From the NCBI GenBank assembly GCA_020723065.1, contig DYJP01000002.1, positions 7,464-71,463 of the forward strand: DNA of 64,000 nucleotides. The letters are read 5' to 3'. The stretch comes from Candidatus Micrarchaeum sp. GTDB lineage: Archaea; Micrarchaeota; Micrarchaeia; CABMEP01. This document shows, one piece after another, positions 10,920 to 57,706 of the stretch. Below the pieces are notes generated by a model. It was not told where the DNA came from, searched no databases, and saw only the letters and a list, made by a program, of their open reading frames with translations. Numbering within the stretch: position 1 is the first letter of the stretch; each line of letters begins with the position of its first letter. The position numbers were made by a program, and so were the translations under genes.

Positions 10920-12113
10920 CTATATGAGTTTTGCTAAACCTTCAGCAAAGTCCTGAGCATCCACATTAAGGAATATGGAAAATGACTTTATGAATGTATA
11001 AGCAAGAACTGCTGCAATAAATGGATAAGCAACTCCGAATATCACCATCTCCCCAATTATTCGCTGCGTATTGGTCATATATGAGATTATGGATGTACTT
11101 TGATATTCTGTTTCACCTATTGAGCTAGTAAATAAGTCCATTGTTTTTGAAAATATTCCAGCAGAAAGTATGTCTGTCAAAATCGGACATGGTACGGCAG
11201 ATAAAAGTGTTGCACTGGTGACACCAGATGTTCCACAAAGGCCGTCAACCCCGCCCGAAGTTGTCCCAAGTACCATCAATATGCTGTATGATATCGGATA
11301 AACGAAATAAAGCCCAATTGAAACGGCAATAAGCAGGTTTCCGACAGAACGAACTACAGGAAAGCCCCTTAAGACCACTCCTACTGGAAGAAACACAGTA
11401 AGCATTGTTGTTTGAATAAAGAGCAGGAGCTGCTTTTGGAAAAAGAACATGTAAATTATGTATGAAATATCTGAAAGCAATCTGTTTATGGCACTTATCG
11501 GAACGCTAAGACCCATTTTAGCAATCTGAGTGACAAAGGAAGACGATGAAAGAACTGAAGATATGCTTCCTAGTGCTGAAGGAACTGAAATGCTCGAAAT
11601 AACCTTATTTGATTCTATTGTATTCAAGACCATCGGAATAGCAACAAGGCAAAATCCATCCTCGTATCGCTTCTGGGCACACACGAGTGTTCGGTTCATA
11701 TAATATTCTGCAACCACAAAGGGAGACTTGTCATTGGCCAAAACAGTTTGAAGTGCGATGCGGTCTTTCGACATTATTCCGACAAATTCTGCAGACTTGC
11801 TTGCAAGGACGTCTACGAACATAATTAGAAATGACAAAAGCACAACTGTAGATATTGCATAAATGAATTCTGATTTCGCAAGCTTCTCCAGGTCACTGGA
11901 TTGAAAAAGCCTTCCAAACATGAATGTAAGAGCCGAAAATGAAAATGAAATAGTCACAGCTATTACGGCAATCAATTCCCAGGGAAAGTCAACCGAATAC
12001 CAAGTCTTTGAAAGTTCCGAAGCAGGTGTTGTTGATGAAGAATAAGTTGACTGTGCTAATGAGATGGAAACGAAAGCCAGGAAAAATACAAACCAATTCG
12101 ATATTCTTCGCAT
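10920..12113 (-). CDS. Paralogous polytopic membrane protein, family member 6 of 6 (397 aa)
   Basis: Signal-like N-terminus. Shared motifs SDLEKLAKSEFIYAISTVVLLSF, LPVGVVLRGFPVVRSVGNLLIAVSIGLYFVYP, and C-terminal tail ...AQDFAEGLAKLI. Confidence 0.6.
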   Translation of the reverse strand: MRRISNWFVFFLAFVSISLAQSTYSSSTTPASELSKTWYSVDFPWELIAVIAVTISFSFSALTFMFGRLFQSSDLEKLAKSEFIYAISTVVLLSFLIMFVDVLASKSAEFVGIMSKDRIALQTVLANDKSPFVVAEYYMNRTLVCAQKRYEDGFCLVAIPMVLNTIESNKVISSISVPSALGSISSVLSSSSFVTQIAKMGLSVPISAINRLLSDISYIIYMFFFQKQLLLFIQTTMLTVFLPVGVVLRGFPVVRSVGNLLIAVSIGLYFVYPISYSILMVLGTTSGGVDGLCGTSGVTSATLLSAVPCPILTDILSAGIFSKTMDLFTSSIGETEYQSTSIISYMTNTQRIIGEMVIFGVAYPFIAAVLAYTFIKSFSIFLNVDAQDFAEGLAKLI

Positions 12114-12140
12114 ACGACCACTAAAAATTACAATACATAA

Positions 12141-13772
12141 CTATATTATCTTCCATATGGAGGCAATATCCATTTCAGAACCAAGCGCGCTAGACAGGCC
12201 TCTTATTCCCTTAGATATTACCGTAAGATTAAGTATTGGAAGCAGAATTCCGGCAATGAACGAGACTACAACCAGATCGAAAAGTTTTCTTATTGATTCG
12301 GATATTGTCGAATCAGAACTGGCGCTTCCTACTATTGTTTGTGAATATGAAGATGTTAGCAAAGTTGTTTGTGTATCCAAAACTTGAAACTGTGCAGACG
12401 GTGACGTTTCGGAAATAGCATAGCTTGCTGCGAGAAGATAGTTTACATCAGATTCAGTCAGAATTGTCTTTGTACAAACTTCATTTGGAGCAGCACCAGT
12501 ACAAGCCCTAGAGGCACACTCTCTCCAATCACCGCACTTTTCCCCATTTGATTTCTTAGGTATGCAAACCTTTCCACCTTCGATCTCATTTGAAACTGTT
12601 CTGTCCCCCACATAAATTGTACTGTAGACATGACTTGTCGAATTGCAAATGCCAGATATGCATTCCGAATCTTTAGTGCACTCTACCCCGTTTGCCTTCC
12701 CTATCTCACATTTTCCAGTGATTGGATTTTTCACAAAACCCTCACAGCATCGTATTGCAACCGAACCTTCTCCACCACAGGAACTACAGTTCTTCCCGGA
12801 AGAAGTCTGCTCACAGTATCCAGACTGGCATTGATCATCTGTCTCGCACGGCTGACCAACATCTTTCAATGGAGAACAAAGCTTAAGATTTTTAGATTGA
12901 TCGAATTCACACATATGCGAATAGCAGTCAAAATTGTTTGTGCATGAAAGTTTCTCAAATATTTCATCTGAATTAACATATTTGTCTACCATTGCCTGAT
13001 TCAAAAGCAAAACGAAAGGAATTAAGATATAAAGACTAATGCCTGCGCCAAGAAGTGCACCGCCAAATTTACGGAAAGGCAAGATGGATCTAAGAACCAA
13101 CCCTATAGGGACCAAAAAGAACAATGTTAAATACGGGACTATCTTTATTATATGAAGCTGAACCACGGTCAACAAGTATGCAGACAAGGCTATCCCATAA
13201 AGAACAAACGTTGAATCGGAAACATATTTTATCGGGTCTGATAATATCTCGAATGTTTTAGATGGTGTTGCATAGCCTTCAACAGATACAGTGGAAAGAA
13301 GCTGCAAGCTTGCTCCTATCGCACCTATTGCGATAGTTGTTTTGCCTAAATATCCAGAAAGTCTAGAAAGATATGATTCGGCAGCAATGAATGTAGGACC
13401 TTCCTTGCCGAAAAGATCGCTCACAACATCGCTACACATAAAGCCGACTATCGCAGTAATTGACACCAGGATAAGTGCGGTGAATACTAGCTGATAAAAC
13501 TCATTTTTAGACTTAGAAATGAAAGAATTGTCGATCGTAGAACCGTACATGTACATAAATCCGACCAGTAAAATTCCAATAATAAGCCCGATGAAGGCGG
13601 TTGCCCTCCAATCATTTATTGAAAGCATGAACTCGCATCCTGCTGTTTGCGCGCTTTCTGCCGTTACTGCGGCTTGAACAAAATAAGAAATGAAAAAGAA
13701 TATGAATAGTGATCTGAATAGAACTGAATCCTGGAAAGTTCCTAAATTCAAATTAAATTTTTTGGAGTCCAT
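12141..13772 (-). CDS. Paralogous polytopic membrane protein, member 5 (543 aa), with a disulfide-rich extracytoplasmic insert
   Basis: Shared motifs KNEFYQLVFTALILVSI and VPIGLVLRSILPFRKFGGALLGAGISLYILIPF. A ~110-aa insert carries repeated C-x(3-4)-D-x-C-x-S-G-x-C modules (CETDDQCQSGYC, CTKDSECISGIC, CTNNFDCYSHMC). Confidence 0.6.
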   Translation of the reverse strand: MDSKKFNLNLGTFQDSVLFRSLFIFFFISYFVQAAVTAESAQTAGCEFMLSINDWRATAFIGLIIGILLVGFMYMYGSTIDNSFISKSKNEFYQLVFTALILVSITAIVGFMCSDVVSDLFGKEGPTFIAAESYLSRLSGYLGKTTIAIGAIGASLQLLSTVSVEGYATPSKTFEILSDPIKYVSDSTFVLYGIALSAYLLTVVQLHIIKIVPYLTLFFLVPIGLVLRSILPFRKFGGALLGAGISLYILIPFVLLLNQAMVDKYVNSDEIFEKLSCTNNFDCYSHMCEFDQSKNLKLCSPLKDVGQPCETDDQCQSGYCEQTSSGKNCSSCGGEGSVAIRCCEGFVKNPITGKCEIGKANGVECTKDSECISGICNSTSHVYSTIYVGDRTVSNEIEGGKVCIPKKSNGEKCGDWRECASRACTGAAPNEVCTKTILTESDVNYLLAASYAISETSPSAQFQVLDTQTTLLTSSYSQTIVGSASSDSTISESIRKLFDLVVVSFIAGILLPILNLTVISKGIRGLSSALGSEMDIASIWKII

Positions 13773-13780
13773 TAAATCAC

Positions 13781-14917
13781 TTATAATTTTTTGATTACTT
13801 CTGAGAAATCCACATCGGATCCGAAGAAGTACCCAAGCTCCTTTGCAACTATAATCGTTATAGTAAAGTCAATTATAGGTATTATCGTAAACAATAAAAA
13901 TGCGAATGACGCTTCGTTGAATAAGACAAGCGGGTTCAAATATTCATTTAGCAACGATGGAAGTTTAGATACAGTATTTATGGAAAAAGCCAATGAAGCA
14001 AATATTGAATTCGTATCATCCTTAAATGAAGTTTCAAGATTCGTCATGAACTTGCCCATTTCTGTATTCTGGGTTCTTGCATCCAGAATATCACTCCATC
14101 CCCCTGGCTTATTCAGAAGTGTATCTACTATTGTTTGATTAATTACAAATGTAAGTGGATAAACTATGTAGAACGAAATTGCAACAACAATCAGAAAATT
14201 ACCAACATTTCTTAAAAAAGAAAAGGTTCTTAATAATAAACCAACTGGCAGAATCAGAGTAAATGCAAGCTTATCTATAAAGTCTAAAAAGTATATCTGC
14301 ATTGTAGTAAGTCCAAGAACTGAAGCAGAAGAGGTTAATATGAAATTGACCATGTTAATTATACTTTCAAAAATAGAGCTTATTGCCCTATCTATGTCAA
14401 ATAAAGGTACTTCCGCAATTTTCGTAAGATAACTGTTGCCAACCACTAATGCAACTTTGAACATATTGGCTGAAGTGACGATTGAAAGCACATATTTTTG
14501 AACGGAAGAAAGATAGATCTTAGCGTTTTCTATCGCTCCGTTTGGATGCTCCACTGTGGCTGTAAATCCGTAAGCCTCAAAAACCATATTCTCTATCTTT
14601 ATCGCTGAAAAGAATAGGAAAACCACTAGCGACATCATGATTACCTGATATAGCTCATTGTTTGCCCAACCGCCCAATTCCCTGACTCCAAAAACCTTGG
14701 AAACCATAAATGCAAGAGAGATAACACCGAGATTTAAGAAGAGCGCTGCAAGAACTATTATTTCCCACGGCAGCGCTCTTAAATTGTAAACTACGACCGA
14801 ATCTTCCTGAGCGAATGTCGCTGGAATTAAAGCAATAATAATCATAAGAACAAAAATGAACGGATGGACACTATATGATTTGAAAGAAGCCGTTCCTGTT
14901 TTTTTAATTTCATTCAT
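13781..14917 (-). CDS. Paralogous polytopic membrane protein, member 4
   Basis: Shared motifs NNELYQVIMMSLVVFLFF and LPVGLLLRTFSFLRNVGNFLIVVAISFYIVYP; tail FGSDVDFSEVIKKL. The start is trimmed to MNEIKK (ATG 14915-14917), which removes the 47-nt overlap with the upstream gene; the track start is 14980. Confidence 0.55.
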   Translation of the reverse strand: MNEIKKTGTASFKSYSVHPFIFVLMIIIALIPATFAQEDSVVVYNLRALPWEIIVLAALFLNLGVISLAFMVSKVFGVRELGGWANNELYQVIMMSLVVFLFFSAIKIENMVFEAYGFTATVEHPNGAIENAKIYLSSVQKYVLSIVTSANMFKVALVVGNSYLTKIAEVPLFDIDRAISSIFESIINMVNFILTSSASVLGLTTMQIYFLDFIDKLAFTLILPVGLLLRTFSFLRNVGNFLIVVAISFYIVYPLTFVINQTIVDTLLNKPGGWSDILDARTQNTEMGKFMTNLETSFKDDTNSIFASLAFSINTVSKLPSLLNEYLNPLVLFNEASFAFLLFTIIPIIDFTITIIVAKELGYFFGSDVDFSEVIKKL

Positions 14918-14933
14918 GTGATCACGATAAGTG

Positions 14934-16148
14934 TTATATAAGTTTAGAGAATCCAGCAAGATCCACGTCTCCTCCAACAAGCTGGGAGAATTCCTTAATG
15001 AATGAGACTAGTCCATAGATAGAAATTATGAATGGAACAAGGATCCATACTGAAAGCACCGAGAGATTATCAAGAAAACCACCGGGCATTATTGTTCTAA
15101 ATATAGTGTATGATATTCGGTCAACTGTATTTCCTTCGGATGTTTCAACCCAAAGATATTTCGTAGTTAAATCCTTTGAGAATTTCACAACTCCTGTTGC
15201 CCAGTCTTTATTTGATTCATCGATATTTTCAGAAACTACTACAATTCCGCCAGTTCCTGCTGCGGAACTTTCAGAAGGAACGTTTGAAATTTGGGACGTT
15301 TCAGCGGTTATAAACTGGGAATTGTCTGAAAATGCAGATACAAACGCATTTGGATCAGGTGAAAACAAAGTCGTCGAAAATACTATAAGCATCGGATATA
15401 TGAAATAAGTTCCGACTGCTATTGAGAAAAGAAGACCGCCCACCCCTCTGAATAATGATATTGACCTCAAAGCAAGACCCGCAATTATTAATGCTGGAAA
15501 GAGCGACTTCATTACAAAAAATAAAAACATTGAATTGGCCTTCAGAAGTATAAGAAGGTTGAAGCCGATTTGAATAAAGTTTGAATAGATTTGGCTTATA
15601 TTGGAGAGAACCGCCAAGGGGGTCGCTTTAAACGCACCATAACCCATAGATACTCCGGCAAGGAGATCGACCCAACCTGCAGAAACCACTTTGTTTGCAA
15701 GATAATACCGCACCACATCATAAGTGTGCTCTAGCTGCGTTATTGCAATCACCATATGGCAAGGAAGTTCGTCTCCTCCGCAGCTCACCTGTACCATTTT
15801 AACTGCAGCATTGAGATTCTCTGGACTTTCAGTAATTATTCCGTACTTTTGGAATTCTATCTTATTGAATGTGCAGTAATCTGTGCTGCAAGAAAGGCTG
15901 AGCGCTGGATTTATCGCAGAAATTACGCCATACATCAGATTGTTCGCTATAGCGACCATGAGCACAGCAGAACTCAGAAGAAATGCTGAAGCAAAAATCT
16001 GGTATATCTCATTCTGGGCCCATTTCTTTAAATTGTCATTGTCGAGGGCCCTTGCGATCATGTAGAATAATGAAATGAAGGCTAAGGAAATCACCAAAAT
16101 TAAAGAGGTGACGGGAGCCCAAGCCTGAAATATCATTTCATATACCAT
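14934..16148 (-). CDS. Paralogous polytopic membrane protein, member 3 (404 aa)
   Basis: Shared motifs LKKWAQNEIYQIFASAFLLSS and IIAGLALRSISLFRGVGGLLFSIAVGTYFIYP; tail VGGDVDLAGFSKLI. Confidence 0.6.
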   Translation of the reverse strand: MVYEMIFQAWAPVTSLILVISLAFISLFYMIARALDNDNLKKWAQNEIYQIFASAFLLSSAVLMVAIANNLMYGVISAINPALSLSCSTDYCTFNKIEFQKYGIITESPENLNAAVKMVQVSCGGDELPCHMVIAITQLEHTYDVVRYYLANKVVSAGWVDLLAGVSMGYGAFKATPLAVLSNISQIYSNFIQIGFNLLILLKANSMFLFFVMKSLFPALIIAGLALRSISLFRGVGGLLFSIAVGTYFIYPMLIVFSTTLFSPDPNAFVSAFSDNSQFITAETSQISNVPSESSAAGTGGIVVVSENIDESNKDWATGVVKFSKDLTTKYLWVETSEGNTVDRISYTIFRTIMPGGFLDNLSVLSVWILVPFIISIYGLVSFIKEFSQLVGGDVDLAGFSKLI

Positions 16149-16163
16149 ATAATCACTTTAAGC

Positions 16164-17054
16164 TTAATCTATGCTATCCAAGAAATTTGTAAATGTCTCT
16201 ACAAATGAAACAGTAATTGTAAAATTGATCAAAGCGAGAAATGTCGCTTGCGGAATCAGAATCGCCATCTGGTCAAAGTAGCCTAAAACATCTATAATTT
16301 GTGAAGATAACTTAAATGTTTCTAAAGGTTCAATAGTTGTCTTTGCAAGACCGTTGAAATTCGGATCAATTGTGTTGTATATTGCATAGTCCATAACGTA
16401 GGTCATTGGAAATACAATATAAAGACCAAAGGCTAATGCCATTAGGAATGAGCCTCCTTTGCGCATCATTGGAATCGTTCGCAATACCATTCCGAGTGGA
16501 AGCAATAATGTCATCGCAAACGCCTCCGAAAACTGAATAAGTATCAATTGAGCATGAAGACTTCCTACTATCACATTGAACAAGGATCCAAAAAGACCTA
16601 TTATCTTAGAAAAAGGAGTGAGCACTTTTCCTGGAGAGAATTTAACTGAACTCTTAGCCGCTGGAAGACCGGTTTTAATCTCTAAAGATGAAATCATGTC
16701 GATAATGAAACCACTGACCCAGAGATTTTGAATTGTCGGAAGCCCTTTCTTATAGATAAGGGTCGTAAGATATTGGCTGCTTGCGGTGAACTGGTTTCCT
16801 TCCCCTATAGTGCTCTGCACCAGATTCTGTGCTGCCCCGCAAGAGGCAGTGGCAAGCCCAACTATTACAACTGCAACTATCAATGCAACGAAAAGCTGAC
16901 TTAGTTCTTTCTTTGCCATCGCCTCGAATTCGCTCTTAATAAGAAGCCTACCGAGCATAAACAGCAAGGAAACAAATGCAAGCGTGGTAATTGAAGCTAA
17001 ACCTATGAAAGTCCAAACATCAATTACAGGCATGCATGCGTCAAGAACAACCAT
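16164..17054 (-). CDS. Paralogous polytopic membrane protein, member 2 (296 aa, minimal core without a large insert)
   Basis: Shared motifs EFEAMAKKELSQLFVALIV and LLPLGMVLRTIPMMRKGGSFLMALAFGLYIVFP. Confidence 0.6.
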   Translation of the reverse strand: MVVLDACMPVIDVWTFIGLASITTLAFVSLLFMLGRLLIKSEFEAMAKKELSQLFVALIVAVVIVGLATASCGAAQNLVQSTIGEGNQFTASSQYLTTLIYKKGLPTIQNLWVSGFIIDMISSLEIKTGLPAAKSSVKFSPGKVLTPFSKIIGLFGSLFNVIVGSLHAQLILIQFSEAFAMTLLLPLGMVLRTIPMMRKGGSFLMALAFGLYIVFPMTYVMDYAIYNTIDPNFNGLAKTTIEPLETFKLSSQIIDVLGYFDQMAILIPQATFLALINFTITVSFVETFTNFLDSID

Positions 17055-17066
17055 ATAAACACCAAA

Positions 17067-18755
17067 TCATATCAGTCTTCCCATTTCTATTATTTTTGTT
17101 TCGCCACCAAGTGTCTGTGATATTGACTTAAATGAACCTACAAATATCGCTATGGTAAGTGCAAATGTAAAAAATATCATCAATGGCGGAAACATTATCT
17201 TGTCTATATTATCTGTAAGATACAGAAACAAATAACCCGAGGAAACGGGACTCAGTGCGACACCAATTAATGATGCATCTGAAGCAGTTGAAAGCAGGCC
17301 CTTCATAAATGTATTGGTGCCGCTGAAAAATCCTTTTATTCCGGATGCAGTAAGCCTCAAATAGCTTATATCATTCAACTCATTTTCCTTTGTTGATGCT
17401 GACAATTTGCAATAAAAACTAGACCAAAGCCCTTCTTTGCAGGGATCTCCAAAATAAAAGCTGTAATTGTCGATATACTGCAAGTTCTTCTCTTCCGACT
17501 TAACAGCTAAAACGATCGTATTTTCATCGTCTGCCTTGAATGATGCAGAATTTAATGCTTGAGTTATATTCTGACCTACAGTAACTGCACCTCTTCCAGT
17601 AAGCTTGAAACAGTTTGTCACATCAAATTTAGATGTATATGGTATTCCATCTTGATCATAAGTGGTAATAGTTTCTTCTCTAATTGTCTTCCAGTAAACA
17701 TAATCCTTTGGAGGCAAATTAGCGTAAATTGAAGATTCAAAAGAAGATGAAATATCAGAAACATAAATTTTGTAATTCAATATATCGTTACACTGAACCT
17801 GTGACCAAATAGAATAATTGAGCGGTACAAGCGCCTTCCATTCGAATTTGTCGCTTTCATTGAGATAATACTTTCCTGGAGCTGGCGAAGTCTTGAGATA
17901 CAGTCCAGCGCCAGTGGGATCGAAGTTTGGCAATTCGCCTAAGATGCCACTACCTGGTTCCATCTCTGTATACAATATATTTTTCATCTCAATGTACATT
18001 GCGTTTGAAACTATAAGCGAAATAGGATAGATTATGTAAGCTGCCAAGGCAATTGCAATTAAGGTGGAACCTGTTTTCCTACTCAATGGGAAGGCACGAA
18101 GCAATACACCCAAAGGCAATACGATTGGAAGCATTGTCTTTTGAATTATATTAAGCAATTCGTGCTGAACAAACATTGCAAAAAACATAGGTTGCATAAA
18201 GGATTCAAAAGATGAAAGCGGGCCTAAAAGCATTCCAAAGGGGCTTCCATATTTTAAGCCAAAATTACTTACAATTGCTGCAAAACTTCCCAACAACCCA
18301 GGAAGATTTACACTTGCAGCAGAAAGTAATGCAGTAAGCCAGCCTATTTTAAATTCGAAAGTTGAAATGAAAGTTATAATCGTTTTAAGAGAAATGACGT
18401 GAGTATATGCCTCTATAAGATCAGCTTGTGCAGTGTCAAGAAATGCGGCAGCAGATTCATAAGGAGTTTGACCGACATATGCAGTAGTTAGTGCAGTAAT
18501 AATTATTATCAATGAATATGCAATTCCAATCAAGGCTCCAGTAAATATGAATTCACTGAGCTCCTTTTTCGCCCAGCCTTTCAACTCATTAGACTGGAAT
18601 GCAGTGGAAAACATCCATGCAAGAGAACTCATTATGGCAGAAAGAATAAGGGACAACACGCAGGTTGCGAACCAGTTTCCATTTTGAAAAACAGAATCGA
18701 TTGAGGACTGGACTACTGTTGTAAACGTGCTCATTTCTGTCGCCATTAATATCAC
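17067..18755 (-). CDS. Paralogous polytopic membrane protein, member 1 (562 aa), first gene of the block
   Basis: Shared motifs NELKGWAKKELSEFIFTGALIGI and VLPLGVLLRAFPLSRKTGSTLIAIALAAYIIYP. A ~250-aa extracytoplasmic insert is present. Tail LGGETKIIEMGRLI. Confidence 0.6.
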   Translation of the reverse strand: MILMATEMSTFTTVVQSSIDSVFQNGNWFATCVLSLILSAIMSSLAWMFSTAFQSNELKGWAKKELSEFIFTGALIGIAYSLIIIITALTTAYVGQTPYESAAAFLDTAQADLIEAYTHVISLKTIITFISTFEFKIGWLTALLSAASVNLPGLLGSFAAIVSNFGLKYGSPFGMLLGPLSSFESFMQPMFFAMFVQHELLNIIQKTMLPIVLPLGVLLRAFPLSRKTGSTLIAIALAAYIIYPISLIVSNAMYIEMKNILYTEMEPGSGILGELPNFDPTGAGLYLKTSPAPGKYYLNESDKFEWKALVPLNYSIWSQVQCNDILNYKIYVSDISSSFESSIYANLPPKDYVYWKTIREETITTYDQDGIPYTSKFDVTNCFKLTGRGAVTVGQNITQALNSASFKADDENTIVLAVKSEEKNLQYIDNYSFYFGDPCKEGLWSSFYCKLSASTKENELNDISYLRLTASGIKGFFSGTNTFMKGLLSTASDASLIGVALSPVSSGYLFLYLTDNIDKIMFPPLMIFFTFALTIAIFVGSFKSISQTLGGETKIIEMGRLI

Positions 18756-18796
18756 TGCCCTTAAGTACTAGATATATAGTTGAATAGCCTTAAATT

Positions 18797-18818
18797 TATT
18801 TCTATGTATATAGAAATA
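18797..18818. promoter_or_regulatory. Inverted repeat TATTTCTA-n6-TAGAAATA with a TATA-like spacer, in the divergent leuS / membrane-array intergenic region
   Basis: Perfect 8-bp arms (18797-18804 and 18811-18818) with spacer TGTATA. It lies 59 nt upstream of the leuS ATG and ~40 nt upstream of the 562-aa gene start on the other strand. Confidence 0.3.
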
Positions 18819-18876
18819 TACTGTGCAAAGTAGAATACTATTCCAGTCTAAACTCAACATATAAACTAGTGATTAT

Positions 18877-23503: not shown

Positions 23504-24655
23504 ATGCCTATAACCATTCTTTTGGAAAAGAACAAACTCAAGGTAAGAAACCAACAGGATTACGAAGCGCTAAGAAGGGCTTTCTACGGAGAGAAGCGCG
23601 GACCCGAAATAGAGCTCACTGTAGAGGAAGCCCTCTATCTGATGGAAGTTCGAAATGCTATTTGCCTAGATGGAGAGCGATCCGTCACATTCAGTGAACT
23701 GGTGCAAAAATTCAACAAACCGAAACTGTTCGCAGAATACATCACATTCAGGGACTGGAGAGAAAGGGGACTCATGGTAAGACCTTTCTCAGACTCGAAA
23801 GGAAACTACAACAAGAATCCGACAGTCAAGTATCCGTTCAAGAAAACAAAATTCAATAAGGTGAATGCCAGCGGATTGTTCTTCAAAGAAGATAAGATGA
23901 CGATCCTGGAAGATGAAGAGACAGGAAAAATCCTGTATCAAAGTCATTGGTTCGGCCAGTACGGATCCTACAAGGCGGAAGGAAGGGGAAGGTTCCTAAA
24001 ACTTGACAAGTTCGAGACGATGTTCCTTGTGAAAAACTGTGGAATGGAGCTCATGAACTGCACGGAAGCAGAGCTCGACGCCAACCTGAATGAGGATCCT
24101 GATTTTCTGTCGATGTATCAAGTTTATGAAGATTGGAGAAATGCTGGATTCATAGTAAAAACAGGATTCAAATTCGGAACGCACTTCAGAATATATTTCC
24201 CAGGCGCATTGCCTGGAAAGAGCAAGGATTGGACCCATTCAAAGCACGTCCTCCACATATTCCCAAGGGAGAAGAGAATGGTAATAGCTGAATGGGCGAG
24301 AGCGATCAGGGTGGCTCACGGAGTCAGGAAGACGTTCATACTCGCCATACCTGGAAAGAAAAAAAAGGAAAAGAATAAATCCATAGTCAGTTTCATATTA
24401 TACCATAGGAAAGGAAACGCCATAGAGACCCCGGACAAAGACGGACCTTCTTTCGCCATGGTTTCATTGAGCGAAGAGGAAATGATCGGAGGAAACGAGC
24501 TTGCAATAGCGATCGAAGAATCCAAGAACCACGGGCTAGATGTTGTCCTGGGTATAGTTGATAGAGAGACTTCTGTCACTTATTACAGGGTAAAAAGAAT
24601 CGACTTGCCGGAAAGCAAGTACGAATATTACGAAATAGAATGGATACAGCCATGA
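23504..24655 (+). CDS. endA: tRNA-splicing endonuclease EndA, three-unit architecture
   Basis: Central catalytic motif GFKFGTHFRIYFPG...WTHSKHVLHI (Tyr/His/Lys triad region). It is preceded by an N-terminal EndA-like domain and followed by a ~130-aa extra C-terminal unit. Confidence 0.75.
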   Translation: MPITILLEKNKLKVRNQQDYEALRRAFYGEKRGPEIELTVEEALYLMEVRNAICLDGERSVTFSELVQKFNKPKLFAEYITFRDWRERGLMVRPFSDSKGNYNKNPTVKYPFKKTKFNKVNASGLFFKEDKMTILEDEETGKILYQSHWFGQYGSYKAEGRGRFLKLDKFETMFLVKNCGMELMNCTEAELDANLNEDPDFLSMYQVYEDWRNAGFIVKTGFKFGTHFRIYFPGALPGKSKDWTHSKHVLHIFPREKRMVIAEWARAIRVAHGVRKTFILAIPGKKKKEKNKSIVSFILYHRKGNAIETPDKDGPSFAMVSLSEEEMIGGNELAIAIEESKNHGLDVVLGIVDRETSVTYYRVKRIDLPESKYEYYEIEWIQP

Positions 24656-33819: not shown

Positions 33820-33925
33820 GCAGGGGTGCCAGAGCCAGGTCAAACGGGTCAGATTCAGTATTGAAGACCAAGCTTAGGACCTGATGCGCGTAGGCGCTGC
33901 GTGGGTTCAAATCCCACCTCCTGCA
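33820..33925 (+). tRNA. tRNA-Leu (anticodon TAG), class II with long variable arm and a candidate 19-nt intron at non-canonical position 30/31
   Basis: Acceptor stem GCAGGGG/CUCCUGC with discriminator A. T-arm GUGGG-UUCAAAU-CCCAC. Variable-arm hairpin GCGC-GUAG-GCGC. Removing 33853-33871 restores a perfect anticodon arm UCAGG-CUUAGGA-CCUGA. The D-arm pairing could not be resolved by eye. Confidence 0.55.
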
Positions 33926-36002: not shown

Positions 36003-37688
36003 TTAAACTATTTTCACCAAATCTCTTGCAACATTAAAGATGAATAGAGTTATTGGCAGAAACAAGATGAAATAACCTATAAATGTCCTTAACCTTCCTT
36101 CCTGGAACGCTATGAAAATCGAGGCCAGCAACACATATATAACCAGATATGCCTGAACCGCTTCAAAAGAAGCGGAAAGCACCGCATTCTTAAATTCCAA
36201 CGAAGTCGCATCCTGTCCGGGGGGCTGTATTCCAGAGATAATACCCAATATAACCGACAGAATGATCGGAACCATTATGCATCCGCCAACAAGTATGGTG
36301 TACTTTTGCAAGGACAGAGACGACGCTTGCTCCTTGGTCAACATGTTGAGCTCAAATATGTCTTCGGCGGTTTCCTTTATTGCATGATGGACGTCCTTTC
36401 CGGTCTTATAACACTGAATAAGAAGTGAAATGACGCGATCCAAAAGTATCGAATGGTTCCTGTCCTTCATATTCAACAACGCATGAATTGGATTTATCCC
36501 GATTTTTATCTGCCTTTCAGCTTTTTTAAACTCTTTAGACAAAGAATGGTAACCTGAATCCCCGATGTTTTGTATTATTTTCTCCATAGGGATCCCAAAT
36601 TCCAATGTGGCTGCATAAAGCAACGCATCCGGAAGATACTGCTCAATCTCATTTGACCGCCTTTCGATAAACCACAGCAGAACTAAGTAGACGATAACAG
36701 GAATGAAAAGAATAAGGAGACAGTATATACTGAAAAAAACAGCTGCTGAAATTGCAACGACAGAAGAAACAACGGAAACGGCAATAATGAAATCTTTGAA
36801 CTTTACGTCCAATCCGAGATTTCGAAGCTCTTCATTAAGCATTAGTATTTCGCGCTTAGAAAACAGTGGTTCGGAAACGTTCGTAAGCACGGAAGGAGTG
36901 GAATATTTAATATAAAATATAAGTAGGATTTCAACAACAGGAAATACGAAAATAAATATGAACCAAATGTCCGAAGGCGAAGTCGGAGAGTCGAGATACA
37001 ATCCAGCCACAACCACATAAGCAAGGTACATCGTTGGTGCTATTGCCGATACGGCAATGAACATCAGGCTCATGAAATTAAGCTTAGCTGAAAACTCCTT
37101 GAAACGGAAGCGCTGGGAATTGATCAATTCGTCTGCACTGTGCTTTAATTCTGAACCGTCCAATCCTTCTAAATACACGTGAATCAGCTGAACTATAAGC
37201 TTCTTTACTATCTGTGAATCTACCCTATCGGCCATTTGCCTTAAGGAATCCGGAATAGTGGCTCCTCCTTCCACCATGTTTACGACTTTCTTGAACTCAT
37301 AAGAACATTGATAATTGGAGTCTGCAACATTCTTCAGAGCAGATTCGAAAGGAACTTTCATGTTGATTTGAATTCCTATAGAACGTATTGCAATTGGAAG
37401 ATCTGATTCGATGCGCATCGCCCTAGATTTGGCAAATTTCATAGGAAGTCGCTTAAATATTAAGAAAAATAATAGAGAAAGTACTGCCGCAAGTACTATG
37501 GATGAGATAATATCGAAATATCCGATCTGCTGCGCAAATGCAGAGAACAATAAGCCTAGGATAACACTTCCAAATGAGATATACCGCAGATACTGGCTTA
37601 CTGAAAATGGAAAGTCCGATTTATACAATGAAATGCTCAGTTCCCTTTTCAGATCTGAAACATACTGTTTTTCTTGGCCATTCTCCAA
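36003..37688 (-). CDS. FlaJ/TadC-like polytopic membrane protein (type II secretion F-domain family), pilus assembly platform
   Basis: 561-aa multi-TM protein immediately downstream of, and co-oriented with, the FlaI-like ATPase. It has two cytoplasmic helical domains between TM blocks, as in FlaJ/TadC. Confidence 0.6.
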   Translation of the reverse strand: MENGQEKQYVSDLKRELSISLYKSDFPFSVSQYLRYISFGSVILGLLFSAFAQQIGYFDIISSIVLAAVLSLLFFLIFKRLPMKFAKSRAMRIESDLPIAIRSIGIQINMKVPFESALKNVADSNYQCSYEFKKVVNMVEGGATIPDSLRQMADRVDSQIVKKLIVQLIHVYLEGLDGSELKHSADELINSQRFRFKEFSAKLNFMSLMFIAVSAIAPTMYLAYVVVAGLYLDSPTSPSDIWFIFIFVFPVVEILLIFYIKYSTPSVLTNVSEPLFSKREILMLNEELRNLGLDVKFKDFIIAVSVVSSVVAISAAVFFSIYCLLILFIPVIVYLVLLWFIERRSNEIEQYLPDALLYAATLEFGIPMEKIIQNIGDSGYHSLSKEFKKAERQIKIGINPIHALLNMKDRNHSILLDRVISLLIQCYKTGKDVHHAIKETAEDIFELNMLTKEQASSLSLQKYTILVGGCIMVPIILSVILGIISGIQPPGQDATSLEFKNAVLSASFEAVQAYLVIYVLLASIFIAFQEGRLRTFIGYFILFLPITLFIFNVARDLVKIV

Positions 37689-37702
37689 AATTTACCACGA
37701 CC

Positions 37703-39091
37703 TTATTCCGGCTTAGAATTTTTAGCCTGAATGTTTGAAAATAACCTTTCCTGAATAGCAAAAACAGAAGTGTTGAAATCGCTGTACTGCAGGTTCTCCA
37801 GAAATTTCTTTCGCATATTCAACTCTTCCTCCAATTCACTCATGCTCAAGCCAAAATTATCTGAAATCTCTTCAAATTTCTGCGAATTCTCAACTGAACC
37901 TTCCATAATGCTGGTTTTTCTATTCAATTCGAAAACTTTATTTATGGATCCGTCGCTCTGAATTTCTGATATTTCGATTCCCTTTCGCTCCTCCCAGTAT
38001 TTCCGTTCTGCTGGGTCATACCTCATTAATCTTCGTTGTACTATAATAAAATCCATGGAATTAAGATCGTGTTTTGAAATTCCAAGCGATACCATCCTCT
38101 TCAACACCTCTTCTGAAGATTGTGCATGAAATGTCGCATAACTTCCTCTGGCCTGCCCACTCAAAATTGTTTCTATGAAGGCATCTGTTTCTTCTTTTGT
38201 TCGGATTTCACCTACAATTACCCGGTCCGGTCTCATCCTAAGGCTATCTTCCACTAAATGCTTCATGTCTATTTTCAATTCTGAGTTCGAAAGCAACTTT
38301 ATTTTATGTGGATGGGGAATATTAATTTCTGGCGTCTCCTCTATGATTAAAATTCGATCAGAAAGTGGAACAAAAGAAAATAAAGCATTGAGGGTGGTCG
38401 TCTTTCCGCTTGCAGTATTTCCAGAGATAAGAACATTATAGTCCGATTGAAAAACAAGCGAAAGAAATGCTATGGCTTCAGGAGAATAAGTACGTTTGTT
38501 GAACAACTCCGTGGGAGTAATCGGATTGTTCCTAAATTTTCGTATGGTCATCTCTACGTTTGAGATTGGAGGAATAGATGCATGAAGTCTTGAACCGTCT
38601 GGCAAAACTGCATTGATTTTCGGGTTCTGATATGTTATTCTCCTACCCACACTTCTGGCAATCTTATTTATGACTGCAATAACAACATCCTGATTTCGAA
38701 AAGAAAGATTCGAAGCAATCCAACCCTTACCGATAAAATATACATAAACTGGTTTGTTTACTCCGATTATCGCTATTTCTTCTATATTTTTGTCCAACAG
38801 GAACTCGTCCAATCCGTTATAGCCGGAGATATTATAAACTAGATATTCAGTTATGTATTTCTCCTGGTCATGGTCTAAAGAAATATTATGGTATTTACAA
38901 TAATCCACAAGAAGCTCCGCTGCCTCTCTTCTTATGTTCTTTAGAGAAATGTCTTTATTTTTTGAAACCTCTTTGAACTGGTTTGAAATTTCGACAATTA
39001 GGTTTTCTTCGTTTTTAGAAATTGGAGGGATTGATAGAGTATATTCGGCTTTTTCTTTTAGAATCTCCCATCCTAACATAGCCAACCTCAT
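37703..39091 (-). CDS. Type II/IV secretion system ATPase (FlaI/VirB11/GspE family), pilus assembly ATPase
   Basis: Walker A GNTASGKTT, Walker B/Asp box LIIEETPE, and an archaeal FlaI-like N-domain. Confidence 0.8.
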   Translation of the reverse strand: MRLAMLGWEILKEKAEYTLSIPPISKNEENLIVEISNQFKEVSKNKDISLKNIRREAAELLVDYCKYHNISLDHDQEKYITEYLVYNISGYNGLDEFLLDKNIEEIAIIGVNKPVYVYFIGKGWIASNLSFRNQDVVIAVINKIARSVGRRITYQNPKINAVLPDGSRLHASIPPISNVEMTIRKFRNNPITPTELFNKRTYSPEAIAFLSLVFQSDYNVLISGNTASGKTTTLNALFSFVPLSDRILIIEETPEINIPHPHKIKLLSNSELKIDMKHLVEDSLRMRPDRVIVGEIRTKEETDAFIETILSGQARGSYATFHAQSSEEVLKRMVSLGISKHDLNSMDFIIVQRRLMRYDPAERKYWEERKGIEISEIQSDGSINKVFELNRKTSIMEGSVENSQKFEEISDNFGLSMSELEEELNMRKKFLENLQYSDFNTSVFAIQERLFSNIQAKNSKPE

Positions 39092-50819: not shown

Positions 50820-52037
50820 TCATCGTTTGGAGCTTTCCTTTCCTGCAGTTATTCTGAGAGTTCCGCCGACTTCCTTTATTGTGACATCTATATTCTTGGA
50901 ATTCTCAAAGCACTCCCTTATCTGGTCAAGAGAATAATTCCTCATTGCGGCAATGTTGGCAGATATCGCTTCATCTGTTATGTCTTTCGCTACTTTCGAT
51001 TCGAACTGCTGCTTGAATACCTTCATGTCGATCTCGAAATAAAGGAGCCTTAGAGGGGATTCCTTATCCTTCTCTTCTTTCCTTCCTACTTCCAACTTCT
51101 GGAATAGGGAGGATCGTATCTCTTTCTGTTTTATGAACGTGCTAACTCTTCTAAATTCTGCGTCAAGTTCGGATAATAGATTGTAAGCGGAATCATTTTC
51201 TGCTGCTAAAAGGAACGAAGAATCTCCAAGGTAAGATATGAATATCTTTTCCGGAGAATCCGCTATCTTGTCCTGTAGCATTTGAGAAACGAGCCTTACT
51301 ATTTTATTCTTTTCCTTTTCGGTATAAAGCTCTGCGTACTGATCTATTCCTTCTATTTCAAGTTTAATGAATTTACTGTTTTCCTCATTAAGATAAAGTG
51401 CAATATTCTTAACGAGCCTTTCGACATCTGGAAGATCGACAAGCGGATCGAATATGTTTCCGCTCTTCTGAAGAAATATATTCGCAAGTGCCCTGAGTTC
51501 CATCGGTTCGAATGGTTTCTTAATGTAGTAGTCAGCCCCGTATTGTATACCGTGGAATCGATTTACTGTAGCATCTGCTGCAGAAACAATAACTACGATT
51601 ATGTTTTTGGTATCTGGCGCTGATTTGATCTTTTTACAGACATCCAATCCATTTATGCCCGGAAGCATAAGGTCTAAAAATACAAGATCTGGCTTAAAGG
51701 TGTTTACTTTTTTCAACCCTTCTTCTCCATCATATGCAGAGTCGATTTCATACCCTTCGCCTAATGATAGTTTGATAAGGTTATTTATATCTTTGTCGTC
51801 TTCCACGATCAAAATTTTCTTCGGTTTTGTGAATTCAAGAACGTACCAAAAGTCCAACTTTCCTACTGCTCTTGATTCTATCTTGCCTTTTGTTTTAAGC
51901 CTTACTAGTGTGCCTTTAACTTCCTCTTCGGAATAACTGGAAAATTCCTTGATTATTTCCTTTGTTTCTAAAGCGATATCTTTAGCTTTTAAGAATGAAA
52001 GGAGCTCTTGTTCAATTTTTAGATCATCAATTTCCAT
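50820..52037 (-). CDS. Response regulator: N-terminal wHTH-like region, CheY-like receiver, and a degenerate GGDEF-like output domain
   Basis: Receiver KILIVEDDKDINNL...KPDLVFLDLMLPGINGL...KKPF. Output domain DPLVDLPDVERL (DxLTGLxNR-like) ... SYLGDSSF in place of GG(D/E)EF. The start is trimmed to MEIDDLK (ATG 52035-52037). Confidence 0.6.
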   Translation of the reverse strand: MEIDDLKIEQELLSFLKAKDIALETKEIIKEFSSYSEEEVKGTLVRLKTKGKIESRAVGKLDFWYVLEFTKPKKILIVEDDKDINNLIKLSLGEGYEIDSAYDGEEGLKKVNTFKPDLVFLDLMLPGINGLDVCKKIKSAPDTKNIIVVIVSAADATVNRFHGIQYGADYYIKKPFEPMELRALANIFLQKSGNIFDPLVDLPDVERLVKNIALYLNEENSKFIKLEIEGIDQYAELYTEKEKNKIVRLVSQMLQDKIADSPEKIFISYLGDSSFLLAAENDSAYNLLSELDAEFRRVSTFIKQKEIRSSLFQKLEVGRKEEKDKESPLRLLYFEIDMKVFKQQFESKVAKDITDEAISANIAAMRNYSLDQIRECFENSKNIDVTIKEVGGTLRITAGKESSKR

Positions 52038-52114
52038 AAACTCACTACGCAAGACAAGTATACAATAAAAGATTGATTGTAAAGAAATTAAAAGGTTAGT
52101 GTGAAAAATGATAT

Positions 52115-54061
52115 ATGGCGGATGCAGGGGATCAAAATATTGGCAAAATGCAACCAACTATATTAGAACTAGCTGAGCTGGAAAAGGAAAACTCAACAGC
52201 TCAGAAAATCGAGCCGAAAATAAATGAAAAAAATAATGTTAGAAGATATGAAGTGAGGTATAGGCCAGACTTCCAACAAAATGATTCTTTTCAATTACTA
52301 TTTAGACATATAGGTGAACCAGCGGTTCTAGTAGACAACAAAAAAAGGATAATGGATGTAAACCCGTCCTTTTCAAGAATGACTTCTTATCAACGAGAGG
52401 AAATTATTGGAAAAAAAATAAACAGCATATTAAGAAAAAACACTATTTTGACAAAAAACAACGGAACTAAGGAATTCGAGGCTAATGAGATTAAGATAGG
52501 TCTTAGCACATTGTATCTTTTCATAGATAAGAATGAAATAGATACTAAATTTAAGATATCTAACGAGCTTGAAGCACTAAAAACACACTTAGATGATTTT
52601 GTAATAAAGGTAAAAAAAGATGGAAAGATTATTTACATGAATCCAAATTTTAAGACCGTATTTTCAAATGCCTCTGAAGGCGAAAACTTAAAGAATTACC
52701 TTAAAATTAATAAATTTCATTCAAAACTGAAAATTGCGAGCGAAACTGGTCAACCTGAACTTTCTGAAGGAACAATGGAAATAAATGACAAAGGACAGAT
52801 AAGGAATTGTCCAATAAACGTGAAAATAATACCATCCAAAGAAGAATTAATAATTATAGTAAAAAATCAAATTGAAAAACTAGATCTTAACAAGCAAATA
52901 GAAGATGCAAAGCAAGAATACGAAGCCATAGTCAACAATGTCACCGATATTATTTGCATAATAGACAAAAAAGGCAAGTTTCAATTTGTAAACAAGCAGT
53001 TTGAACGGCAGCTTGGGTATAAGAAGGAGAATCTCCCCTTACTTCCCCAAATAATCTATCATGAAGACCTTCCAAAATTTCTTCAGACTCTTACTGAAAT
53101 AGAAAGAAACAATAGAGGTTTTCAAGAACTTGAAATAAGCCTTTATACCTCTAAACGAAAACTACTCAATTTCTCAGCAAGTGGAATATCTAAGATATCT
53201 GATGGAAACGACGTGAGATACAGTGTCACCTTAAGAGATATTACAGCAAAGAAAAAAAGTGAAAATGAAACTGCAAAAGAAAGGGAAAAATTGAAAGAAG
53301 AATACAAAAAGATGAAGGAAATTAATGAAATGAAAACCAATTTCGTAAGCATGGTATCACACGATCTTAAAACACCACTTACAAACATACAAGGATACGC
53401 TTCTCTCATGAGAAACAAAATATTGGGACCGAATAATCCGAAGCAGCAGGAAGCAACAGAAATAATAGACAAGGAATCTAAACGTCTCGCCAAACTGATC
53501 AACGACCTTTTAGATCTTTCAAAAATAGATGCGGGGGCTATGGTCATACAGAAGAAACCGTTTAAACTTAAAGATTTAGAAGACAAATGCTCCTTAAAAC
53601 ATCTCGCAGAAAAGAAAGGTTTGATACTTATATGGAACACTCCTGAATCGCTCGGCGAAGTTTATGGAGATCCAGAAAGAATAGCCCAAGTTCTCACCAA
53701 TCTTGTAAATAATGCGATCAAATTTACAGATCACGGATCCGTGACTGTCAATGCGTTCGAAAAAGGAAAAGACAATATACAAATTGATGTTATAGACACC
53801 GGACTGGGAATACCTAAAAAAGACCAGGAAATGATTTTTGAAAGATTCCAGCGAAGTAGTACTTCCTTGAAATTCAAAAAAGAAGGAAGTGGTCTCGGCC
53901 TTGCTATCGCAAGAGAGATAATGAAGCTTCATGACAGTGACATAATGGTCAAATCAGAAGTAGGTAAAGGAAGCACGTTTAGTATAATATTAAGTAAAGC
54001 ACCGAAGCAACAAAATGAAAGAGACAAGGTTAACGACTATCTCGAAAAGATGACCCATTAA
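52115..54061 (+). CDS. Cytoplasmic PAS-domain sensor histidine kinase
   Basis: Multiple PAS-like repeats. HisKA VSMVSHDLKTPLTNIQGYASLM. HATPase_c N-box LTNLVNNAIKFT and G-boxes DTGLGIP / GSGLGLAIA. No TM helices. Confidence 0.8.
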   Translation: MADAGDQNIGKMQPTILELAELEKENSTAQKIEPKINEKNNVRRYEVRYRPDFQQNDSFQLLFRHIGEPAVLVDNKKRIMDVNPSFSRMTSYQREEIIGKKINSILRKNTILTKNNGTKEFEANEIKIGLSTLYLFIDKNEIDTKFKISNELEALKTHLDDFVIKVKKDGKIIYMNPNFKTVFSNASEGENLKNYLKINKFHSKLKIASETGQPELSEGTMEINDKGQIRNCPINVKIIPSKEELIIIVKNQIEKLDLNKQIEDAKQEYEAIVNNVTDIICIIDKKGKFQFVNKQFERQLGYKKENLPLLPQIIYHEDLPKFLQTLTEIERNNRGFQELEISLYTSKRKLLNFSASGISKISDGNDVRYSVTLRDITAKKKSENETAKEREKLKEEYKKMKEINEMKTNFVSMVSHDLKTPLTNIQGYASLMRNKILGPNNPKQQEATEIIDKESKRLAKLINDLLDLSKIDAGAMVIQKKPFKLKDLEDKCSLKHLAEKKGLILIWNTPESLGEVYGDPERIAQVLTNLVNNAIKFTDHGSVTVNAFEKGKDNIQIDVIDTGLGIPKKDQEMIFERFQRSSTSLKFKKEGSGLGLAIAREIMKLHDSDIMVKSEVGKGSTFSIILSKAPKQQNERDKVNDYLEKMTH

Positions 54062-54065
54062 TAGA

Positions 54066-56117: not shown

Positions 56118-56681
56118 TCAATCACAAAATAAATTTAAAAATTTCTATTAAGATAATAAAACAGAAATAGAAATATAAAAGTATTTTGAATTTTACAGAA
56201 AAACACAAGACGGACCCCTTAATTCCAGTAATAATGGAATTTTCTGAATATTTAATTCTAATAAACTAGAAATAAACTGTTTTAAATTAAGCTATTTTAT
56301 TTTTGTAATAAAATTAATATCTTCTATATTTATTTTATAATAATCTATCCAATCAAGATAATCTTTAAAAAATAGATCTATTTCATTTTGATATTCGTTT
56401 TCGATTAGGAATATTTGGTTTTTTAAAAATAATTTAATTTTTATGTATTTGTTTAATTTTTTAAAATTATAATAAAATCTTCTTTTAATTGTATTTTTAA
56501 CTTTTTTAGATGATGATTTTATTTGAAAAAGATAAAGAATAGTCATATTGTAACTTTAGTTACATAAATTTATATATTTATTTATAATATTGGAACTAAC
56601 CCCTCCCCCTATCAACTAAAACTGTATAAATTTAAAAGTAATCAGAAATTTACTAAAAAAAGGTAAAAAAAATAAAAAAGA

Positions 56682-57233
56682 CTAAACTACTCTTAAAACA
56701 CTGTCCTTTTTAACTCCATTTAAAATATATGAATAAGTCCTGTAATGAACATATGCATTAATTTTTACTGGTGCATTTCCAGGTGGAGTTGTACTATTTG
56801 ACCAAATCGGAACAATTATTGTATAGCTATCTCCTTTATTTAAATAACCCACTCTTATCTCTTTTGTTCTATGGATACCTGTTTGGTCAAGACCTAAATT
56901 GTTTCCAACTTCAATAACTAAAGAAGTTAAAACAGTTTCATTTGTCATGTTCTTAATCTTAATTTCTAAATCACATCTATCTATTTTGTGTGATGAAATT
57001 CTAACTGGATTAAACGAAGTTTTTATATCAAATGGAACTTTTTTTGCAATAGGACTTACATCCTTCTTTCCAAATAAATCTAAAATACCCATAAACCCAC
57101 TCTTCTTATTTTCTCTGACGAGATATTCATATTTTATTTTATAGCATTCCTTTATATTAGTTTCTTTTACTAACTTGTTTTCTTCGTTATCGAATAGGTT
57201 TTTAAATATTATACTTAATATCTCATTATACAC
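56682..57233 (-). CDS. Hypothetical protein (183 aa) inside a low-GC island
   Basis: Intact ORF with no recognisable motif. Its GC is markedly lower than flanking genes. Confidence 0.35.
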   Translation of the reverse strand: MYNEILSIIFKNLFDNEENKLVKETNIKECYKIKYEYLVRENKKSGFMGILDLFGKKDVSPIAKKVPFDIKTSFNPVRISSHKIDRCDLEIKIKNMTNETVLTSLVIEVGNNLGLDQTGIHRTKEIRVGYLNKGDSYTIIVPIWSNSTTPPGNAPVKINAYVHYRTYSYILNGVKKDSVLRVV

Positions 57234-57239
57234 AATGAG

Positions 57240-57467: not shown

Positions 57468-57555
57468 CTTAACTTAATTTCTTTTTTATTTTTTCTTTAT
57501 TTTTCTCATTTTTGATTTTTATATATTTAATTAATATTGGTCTGTATCTAATTAG

Positions 57556-57628: not shown

Positions 57629-57706
57629 ATCAAATAAAAAATCAGAACGTACGCTTACACTATATTACATTCTACATTTTAAAATATTACTCTACGACTA
57701 TATATT

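Follow-up and report, generated by a model that had tools for sequence, protein, structure and literature searches.

The 64,000-nucleotide stretch of Candidatus Micrarchaeum sp. analysed here (GenBank assembly GCA_020723065.1, contig DYJP01000002.1, positions 7,464 to 71,463; hereafter, the window) carries a tandem array of six consecutive, co-oriented paralogous open reading frames (ORFs) for membrane proteins on its minus strand (18755-10920), and the question that this locus raises is why six versions of one membrane protein are kept side by side and what they do together. Our results point, with a probability that we put at roughly 0.6, to the array being a six-paralog, VirB6-equivalent membrane platform that belongs to a domesticated type IV secretion system (T4SS) or Ced-like apparatus in DPANN archaea. 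This reading draws on the fixed composition of the array, on the predicted architecture of its proteins, and on the pilin and ATPase genes that surround it in relatives.

The ORF list and a MAFFT alignment of the six proteins confirmed what the original prediction had proposed from the letters alone, namely, six consecutive genes in one orientation that share three blocks, all of which the alignment recovered. Specifically, block 1 is a (E/K)L..(W)AK.E loop that follows the first transmembrane (TM) helix and in which E65 is invariant; the central block reads LPxGxxLRxFPxxRxxGxxLIAxxxGxYxxYP, with G216, L219, R220, R226, G229, L232, Y240, and P244 invariant; and block 3 comprises the last TM helix plus a G.D.D....KLI tail, which was found in five of the six paralogs. 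Pairwise identity among the six is 20-27%, and each of them matches the family hidden Markov model (HMM) at E = 1e-66 to 1e-104, so that the shared motifs go beyond generic TM composition. Counting paralog 4 from its M22 start (14917), which removes the 47-nt overlap with gene 3, gives intergenic spacers of 12, 15, 16, 8, and 27 nt and thereby reproduces the predicted range of 8-27 nt. The gap between gene 1 and leuS (Table 1) is presumed, from its sequence, to be a divergent archaeal promoter region, and a AAATAAATTTAAGG stretch lies in it, some 25-40 nt ahead of the start codons.

The family to which these proteins belong is large and without a name. An exhaustive HMMER search returned 3,126 family cluster representatives (of clusters at 50% identity) at E <= 1e-3 and 2,599 at E <= 1e-10; its named members, all annotated as "hypothetical protein", come from Micrarchaeota, Aenigmatarchaeota, or Ca. 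Burarchaeum, with Candidatus Micrarchaeota as the named group nearest to the window proteins, and a scan of genome contigs with the family alignment found only three Micrarchaeota loci. None of the six paralogs matched Pfam, NCBIfam, PHROG, or a PDB sequence; Pfam, NCBIfam, and PHROGs searches with the eight proteins of the unit described below gave sub-threshold noise only (Vezatin, TMEM108, and SctU at E = 0.4); no Pfam family was matched by more than one of 83 diverse family members; and PDB sequence searches with 6-sequence and 83-sequence profiles gave nothing meaningful. The earlier description of an unrecognised family thus holds for real paralogs that lie outside Pfam, NCBIfam, PHROGs, and PDB sequences. 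In the literature (open-access papers and preprints), we found no description of the six-paralog family, nor of DPANN archaea with VirB6, VirB4, or CedB-type systems, the exception being a VirB4-like domain noted in the giant SPEARE proteins of nanohaloarchaea. A putative secretion system that Makarova et al. described in 2015 (PMC5898192; arCOG01314, MoxR, vWA) was considered for the array, given that "5-TM membrane proteins" are among its components, and was rejected, its marker genes all being absent here.

With these searches in hand, the least probable of the explanations that we considered is that the array is an offshoot, diverged beyond easy recognition, of an established family of transporters or pilus platforms (such as FlaJ/TadC, ABC-2, FtsX, or MmpL). 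Its polytopic helical nature alone speaks for such a descent, against which stand the lack of any Pfam, NCBIfam, or PDB profile match for the six paralogs and of any Pfam or PDB match with the 83 members, as well as fold searches in which no such family appeared among the long matches. Further, PF00482 was matched neither by the six paralogs nor by the 83 members, in agreement with the earlier exclusion of FlaJ/TadC, and a true gene of that type lies elsewhere in the window: at 36003-39091 (-), a FlaJ/TadC-like T2SSF protein (561 aa, 36003-37688) is encoded together with a FlaI-type T2SSE ATPase (462 aa). Given this separate FlaJ/FlaI pair, the pilus platform of this genome is something other than the six-paralog array.

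Are the six copies, then, interchangeable products of gene duplication? All 18 of the complete, non-redundant arrays examined held exactly six family genes, in identical order. Across 306 comparisons (every ordered pairing among the 18 arrays), the best match of a protein at positions 1-6 lay at the same position in 165, 260, 223, 157, 206, and 276 cases, respectively, against a chance expectation of about 51, and positions 2 and 6 are among the most conserved across arrays. BLAST scores tell the same-position orthologs (200-400 bits) clearly from different paralogs (26-71 bits between paralogs, and 30-80 bits between different positions of two species); the window paralogs have one-to-one, same-position orthologs in two other Micrarchaeota, and orthology with an Aenigmatarchaeota contig was found at the first three positions. 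By these sequence comparisons, the six copies belong to six ancient orthologous groups whose order is fixed, and are not interchangeable or variable copies. From six ancient, ordered, and non-redundant paralogs, we infer a heteromeric assembly. In Ca. Burarchaeum australiense (L009:7805-15051, plus strand), seven family matches were seen, one position appearing as two genes of 144 and 248 aa, which could be due to a frameshift or to a genuine split; counted as one gene, the array again numbers six.

The architecture of the proteins is likewise shared. Hydropathy gives five TM helices in each paralog, and the density of lysine plus arginine is 0.06-0.27 in the two short conserved loops versus 0.00-0.08 in the other segments, the short C-terminal tail excepted, which under the positive-inside rule places both loops and the tail in the cytoplasm. 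It follows that the N-terminus, the loop of about 100 aa after TM2, and the insert between TM4 and TM5 would face the outside. These sequence indicators predict a protein with its N-terminus out, five TM helices, a long helical outside loop between TM2 and TM3, and an acidic cytoplasmic C-terminal tail. AlphaFold2 models of the 296-aa member (mean predicted local distance difference test score, pLDDT, 76.9) and of paralog 6 (pLDDT 80.9) are all-helical, with long helices that reach past the membrane. The inserts, all placed between TM4 and TM5, differ strongly among paralogs, and the 20 cysteines in that of the 543-aa member are consistent with an outside location. The proposed combination of a conserved core with extracytoplasmic inserts is thus supported by the alignment, the positive-inside rule, and these cysteines.

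A second part of that proposal, in which the inserts are hypervariable and under diversifying selection, was not supported. Between the window and the species of locus L001, the inserts of five of the six paralogs are 86-90% alignable and, in those five, 27-41% identical, compared with 42-54% for the core; because of this, the inserts appear, from the alignments, to be old, paralog-specific, and conserved among orthologs, not hypervariable. At deep distance, the large inserts change position, being found at positions 1 and 5 in the window, at 2 in L019, and at 3 and 4 in L008. It is this shift, along with the strong differences among paralogs, that would favour an array of partly redundant, duplicated surface proteins whose hypervariable inserts are diversified by selection for host contact. 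We consider this very unlikely, given that the number and order of the copies are fixed in 18 arrays, that orthology between species is one-to-one, and that the inserts of five paralogs come close to the core in their conservation.

What apparatus such a set of proteins might belong to is suggested by the genes around it in relatives. In locus L010, two proteins of 115 and 118 aa encoded before the array match TrbC/VirB2 (E = 4.8e-6) and T4SS_pilin (E = 1.5e-5), and the array is followed by two 2-TM proteins of 264 and 273 aa and then by a 513-aa ATPase with DUF87, AAA_10, and TraG P-loop domains. Genes for a ParE toxin and a DUF2683 protein, likely a toxin-antitoxin pair, lie between the pilin genes and the array of this locus (L010:8949-9478, plus strand). 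In L019, the order is pilin, pilin, six paralogs, two 264-aa proteins, ATPase, and a 99-aa protein, with gaps of a few bases, and it continues with a 126-aa Zn-ribbon 2-TM protein, a 248-aa coiled-coil/winged-helix protein, and a 2-TM protein of about 800 aa. The second L019 pilin (828-1193) scores 28.5 bits on PF04956, for which the gathering cut-off is 27.9 bits, and the array begins at 1325. A jackhmmer profile of the in-operon pilins matches R388 TrwL/VirB2 at E = 1.1e-10. The best curated families for the linked ATPase are CedD (8.9e-20) and, for the L008 copy, CedB (5.8e-24), followed by VirB4-like CD1110 and TraC and only later by HerA; in a tblastn search of plasmids with this ATPase, 3,447 of the 3,752 records matched were conjugative, and the best-covered among the matches listed fell on TraC, the VirB4 homolog of F-type plasmids.

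A metagenome scan seeded with the linked ATPase gave 80 loci, 32 of them with at least 9 kb of upstream sequence. Exactly six family genes lay directly upstream, on the same strand, in 14 of these 32, a count that is biased by the loci having been found via the ATPase, and one further locus held five family genes at a contig edge. In L008, the ATPase module is 4 kb from the six-gene array. The ATPase-adjacent array of L083 has members that share 49-52% identity with P0116 and with P0050, a protein from a named Micrarchaeota, from which it follows that the linked arrangement is present within the phylum of the window. The module itself (L019:8348-15562, with equivalents across L011-L090) always joins the ATPase to conserved unnamed proteins, namely, one or two 264-aa 2-TM proteins, the 99-aa protein, the 126-aa Zn-ribbon 2-TM protein, the 248-aa protein, and a 2-TM protein of 800-900 aa. 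Its 99-aa protein is homologous to the ATPase C-terminus and the 248-aa protein has a weak EAP30/Vps36 match; no Pfam family was found for these companions.

Within a T4SS, the component that the array family most resembles is VirB6/TrbL, with R388 TrwI (7o3v) and VirB6 of A. tumefaciens as reference proteins. The topology of VirB6, in which the N-terminus is outside, a large outside loop follows the second of five TM helices, and the C-terminus is cytoplasmic, is also the one predicted for the array family. VirB6 proteins have been described as having 4-6 hydrophobic helices and about 300 residues in monoderm systems, with "extended" forms that carry central or C-proximal hydrophilic domains (PMC12857230), and the array proteins, polytopic and helical, have five TMs, a 296-aa core, and TM4-TM5 inserts. 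In fold, the likeness is suggestive but weak: in a Foldseek search with the 296-aa model, R388 TrwI/VirB6 (7o3v) ranked first and second (E = 0.19, probability 0.82), and it was the best long structural match in the fold searches. VirB6/TrbL genes share their operon with those of a VirB2 pilin and a VirB4 ATPase, and in relatives, though not in the window, the array is found together with such genes (14 of the 32 ATPase loci, plus L010 and L008). Tandem VirB6 paralogs are known, for example in Ehrlichia, from work cited in PMC12857230. Several distinct TrwI/VirB6 genes are also present on individual Bartonella chromosomes (e.g., two in B. australis AUST/NH1), a bacterial precedent alongside that of the Rickettsiales. 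Further, an hhalign comparison of the in-operon pilin with the TM1-loop-TM2 segment of the family gave P = 7.6e-4 (probability 25%, 41 columns), and the jackhmmer pilin profile also recovered one member of the six-paralog family. This is of interest here since the N-terminal hairpin of the polytopic protein has been related to the cognate pilin for both CedA/CedA1 and VirB6/VirB2 (Beltran et al., PMC9905601). Position, topology, and context together suggest that the family is VirB6-equivalent, with homology itself as a further step that we infer, as we do the heteromeric assembly, the cargo, and its direction.

The closest parallels among whole systems are the Ced/Ted DNA-import systems of Sulfolobales and Thermoproteales (PMC9905601), which are archaeal and chromosomal and which, as we propose for the array, derive from a domesticated T4SS that has no relaxase and joins a VirB2-like pilin and a VirB4-like ATPase to a polytopic protein resembling VirB6. 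CedB and CedD are the best matches of the array-linked ATPase, and the family's N-terminal hairpin may, as in CedA, resemble the cognate pilin. Several differences set them apart. CedA and TedA are single genes with 6-7 TM helices, whereas the array consists of six 5-TM paralogs; NCBIfam Ced models match the linked ATPase, while the six paralogs match no NCBIfam model; the accessories of the array (the 264-aa 2-TM pair, the 126-aa Zn-ribbon, 248-aa coiled-coil/winged-helix, and 800-900-aa 2-TM proteins) are not those of Ced/Ted; and the hosts are Thermoproteota rather than DPANN. A second parallel is the T4SS of Patescibacteria, or candidate phyla radiation (CPR) bacteria (PMC12102498), also chromosomal and relaxase-less in ultra-small, host-dependent cells, with VirB2-like pilins in a monoderm; virB6 was reported there to be essential for the epibiotic growth of one Saccharibacterium. 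Unlike the system considered here, it is bacterial, its VirB6 is recognisable by standard profiles, and it has no six-paralog array.

Several observations weigh against the reading of the array as a VirB6-equivalent platform. First, the array family has no detectable sequence or profile similarity to VirB6; Pfam TrbL (PF04610) was matched neither by the six paralogs nor, even at E <= 1, by the 83 members, and comparing the family profile by hhalign with TrwI or with a TrwI-clade profile gave P = 0.19-0.35 (0.32-0.35 for the clade), the latter profile being narrow (121 sequences, Neff about 3), as the homolog search had returned only close TrwI relatives of at least 51% identity. To our knowledge, moreover, the signature loop LPxGxxLRxFPxxRxxG is not a VirB6 motif. 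Second, known VirB6 assemblies are homopentamers of one gene product (PMC12857230), set under a VirB5/pilus base, whereas six ancient paralogs in conserved order argue for a heteromer, which would depart from known VirB6, and the array's host is an archaeon with a single membrane. Third, the window contains no pilin, 264-aa partner, or VirB4-like ATPase, nor do the readable flanks of its contig, and all three are absent from L001, L002, L004, and L009 as well. The array is thus uncoupled from the ATPase module in the window's contig and is not adjacent to an ATPase/pilin module in three related Micrarchaeota loci. Finally, no array was found nearby in 17 of the 32 ATPase loci, so the modules are separable, and the ATPase-seeded loci are mostly of unassigned taxonomy, in addition to the bias in their count. 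For the original prediction's analogy to VirB6 arrays, this leaves the best lead available, through the TrwI fold match and the VirB2/VirB4-type operon in relatives, and a sequence or profile link to VirB6 that was not found.

Some of these observations favour an independent, DPANN-specific heteromeric complex (a channel, a lipid or nutrient uptake system, or a scaffold) that would work with two accessory proteins of 836 and 651 aa and without a VirB4-type ATPase, its adjacency to T4SS genes reflecting loose coupling or shared regulation. Arrays of the window type have the 836/651 pair, not the ATPase module, as their linked neighbours, and both the array-less ATPase loci and the lack of VirB6 sequence homology, with weak fold matches, fit such a complex. 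We nevertheless regard it as rather unlikely, since in 14 of the 32 loci pilins, six paralogs, 264-aa proteins, and ATPase are packed on the same strand with few-base gaps or overlaps, since L083 shows an ATPase-linked array inside the same phylum, and since the apparently pilin-like N-terminal hairpin fits a T4SS relationship. Under the platform reading, the ATPase/pilin module of the window's genome may sit elsewhere, as the 17 array-less ATPase loci suggest is common; alternatively, the module may be absent, and the array would then act with its 836/651 partners alone.

Those two partners had been overlooked. The proposal of a unit made of six genes is borne out for the six paralogs, and two further linked genes have to be added, so that in the lineage of the window the unit comprises eight genes (Table 1). 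The 836-aa gene is linked to the array in every window-type Micrarchaeota locus; the cytoplasmic domain of its product is K/E-rich and helical, no Walker A motif was found in the protein, and it is unrelated to the 800-900-aa protein of the ATPase module. In L002, the 836/651-aa genes lie upstream of the array rather than downstream, the linkage having outlasted a rearrangement, and jackhmmer searches from both proteins returned window-type loci only. An Aenigmatarchaeota homolog of the 651-aa protein (L007:44-2443, plus strand) carries a C-terminal Peptidase_M23 domain of the LytM type (residues 705-763), comparable to the VirB1 hydrolases of monoderm T4SSs, which are of LytM type as well (PMC12857230). 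That an archaeon should encode a wall hydrolase for use outside the cell suggests a target in the envelope of a host or neighbour.

Table 1. Genes of the array and its accessory proteins, with other located features, in window coordinates.
Feature	Coordinates	Strand	Description
Paralog 1	17067..18755	-	562 aa from GTG; five-TM core plus insert of ~195 aa (residues 306-499) between TM4 and TM5
Paralog 1, database call P0001	ATG at 18746	-	559 aa
Paralog 2	16164..17054	-	296 aa; minimal core, insert nearly nil
Paralog 3	14934..16148	-	404 aa
Paralog 4	13781..14917	-	378 aa from M22 (likelier start); ortholog of 383 aa
Paralog 4, mechanical ORF	13781..14980	-	399 aa, TTG start; overlaps gene 3 by 47 nt
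Paralog 5	12141..13772	-	543 aa; Cys-rich insert (20 Cys) between TM4 and TM5
Paralog 6	10920..12113	-	397 aa; signal-peptide-like N-terminus preceding TM1; AlphaFold2 mean pLDDT 80.9
Gap between gene 1 and divergent leuS (18877)	18756..18876		121 nt, AT-rich
Accessory protein, 836 aa	8349..10859	-	N-terminal TM, ~150-aa outside segment, second TM at ~182-200, ~630-aa cytoplasmic domain
Accessory protein, 651 aa	6386..8341	-	basic N-terminus, one TM, large extracellular domain with 21 Cys
23S rRNA, archaeal type	61267-64000		in the window

The surroundings of the unit bear on whether it belongs to the cell or to a mobile conjugative element, i.e., an integrative and conjugative element or an integrated plasmid rather than a machine of the host. 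T4SS-type neighbours in relatives, and the ParE toxin gene beside the L010 array, would be expected of such an element. The array is, however, embedded among housekeeping genes (leuS, NUDIX, a Wyosine_form/radical SAM gene, tRNA-splicing endonuclease, SRP54, P-type ATPase, PolB, and others), and this synteny, including leuS, NUDIX, the wyosine gene, the endonuclease, SRP54, and the P-type ATPase, is kept between species; its guanine-plus-cytosine (GC) content of 0.38-0.39 is near that of most of the window; and its positional orthology extends across phyla. No VirB4/VirD4 ATPase, integrase, or relaxase was found in the window or in the readable parts of the contig beyond it, where the original prediction had recommended looking for such an ATPase or integrase. 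With no sign of a mobile element and with conserved synteny, we consider this explanation highly improbable.

Other features of the window are recorded here in passing. Two Rfam tRNA matches of 106 and 111 nt, at 33820-33925 (+) and 59611-59721 (+), were both missed by ARAGORN and probably contain introns, and a 383-aa two-domain tRNA-splicing endonuclease is encoded nearby, at 23504-24655 (+). Positions 52000-60000 have a GC content of 0.27-0.33, as opposed to about 0.40 elsewhere in the window; the genes of this region are a response regulator (50820-52157), a PAS histidine kinase (52115-54061), topoisomerase I (54066-56117), and several small unannotated ORFs.

How might the proposed VirB6-equivalent platform work? 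In the model that we put forward, the six paralogs, each present in one or a fixed number of copies, would assemble within the cytoplasmic membrane into a heteromeric ring or platform that takes the role of VirB6/TrbL (CedA/TedA in archaea), that is, of a membrane base that recruits VirB2-type pilins at its outside face and passes substrate, powered by a VirB4/CedB-type ATPase docked on the cytoplasmic side. Partners in the cytoplasm would dock onto the C-terminal tail and the conserved E and R residues in both cytoplasmic loops: in relatives, the VirB4/CedB-like ATPase with its 264-aa membrane proteins, and, in the lineage of the window, possibly the cytoplasmic domain of the 836-aa protein. 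The paralog-specific outside inserts and the Cys-rich 651-aa protein would make up the part that faces the envelope. Since it is chromosomal, passed on vertically, and widespread among DPANN archaea, the apparatus is probably a domesticated T4SS for exchange (of DNA or other cargo) with a host or other cells and not for plasmid transfer; being chromosomal, vertical, and relaxase-less, it resembles Ced/Ted and the CPR T4SS. More tentatively, and with doubts that exceed our confidence, a hetero-hexamer of the six VirB6-like paralogs, amounting to a eukaryote-style paralogous ring in a prokaryotic secretion system, could be the membrane core of a conserved, chromosomally fixed, T4SS-derived DPANN envelope machine, and this machine, rather than type IV pili, would be the conduit for host exchange. 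Such a conduit might be the base of a nanotube or cytoplasmic bridge through which these genome-reduced symbionts exchange DNA, lipids, or metabolites with their hosts.

For the biology of these archaea, such an assignment would reach beyond the window. How DPANN archaea acquire the compounds that they do not make, and what builds the tubes and bridges to hosts seen by cryo-tomography, is a question that has been without molecular candidates; a cryo-electron tomography paper on DPANN archaea did not name candidate genes for these structures. If true, our reading would add DPANN to Thermoproteota (Ced/Ted) and the bacterial CPR as lineages with domesticated conjugation machinery, and would supply a rare prokaryotic case of an obligate six-paralog membrane assembly. 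We rate a six-paralog core in T4SS/Ced-like machinery as being without precedent. A family of more than 3,000 clusters outside Pfam and NCBIfam would gain a concrete assignment, as the six-subunit core of a T4SS/Ced-like apparatus, and the six orthologous groups, the 264-aa partner, and the ATPase provide HMM-ready markers with which hundreds of genomes can be annotated.

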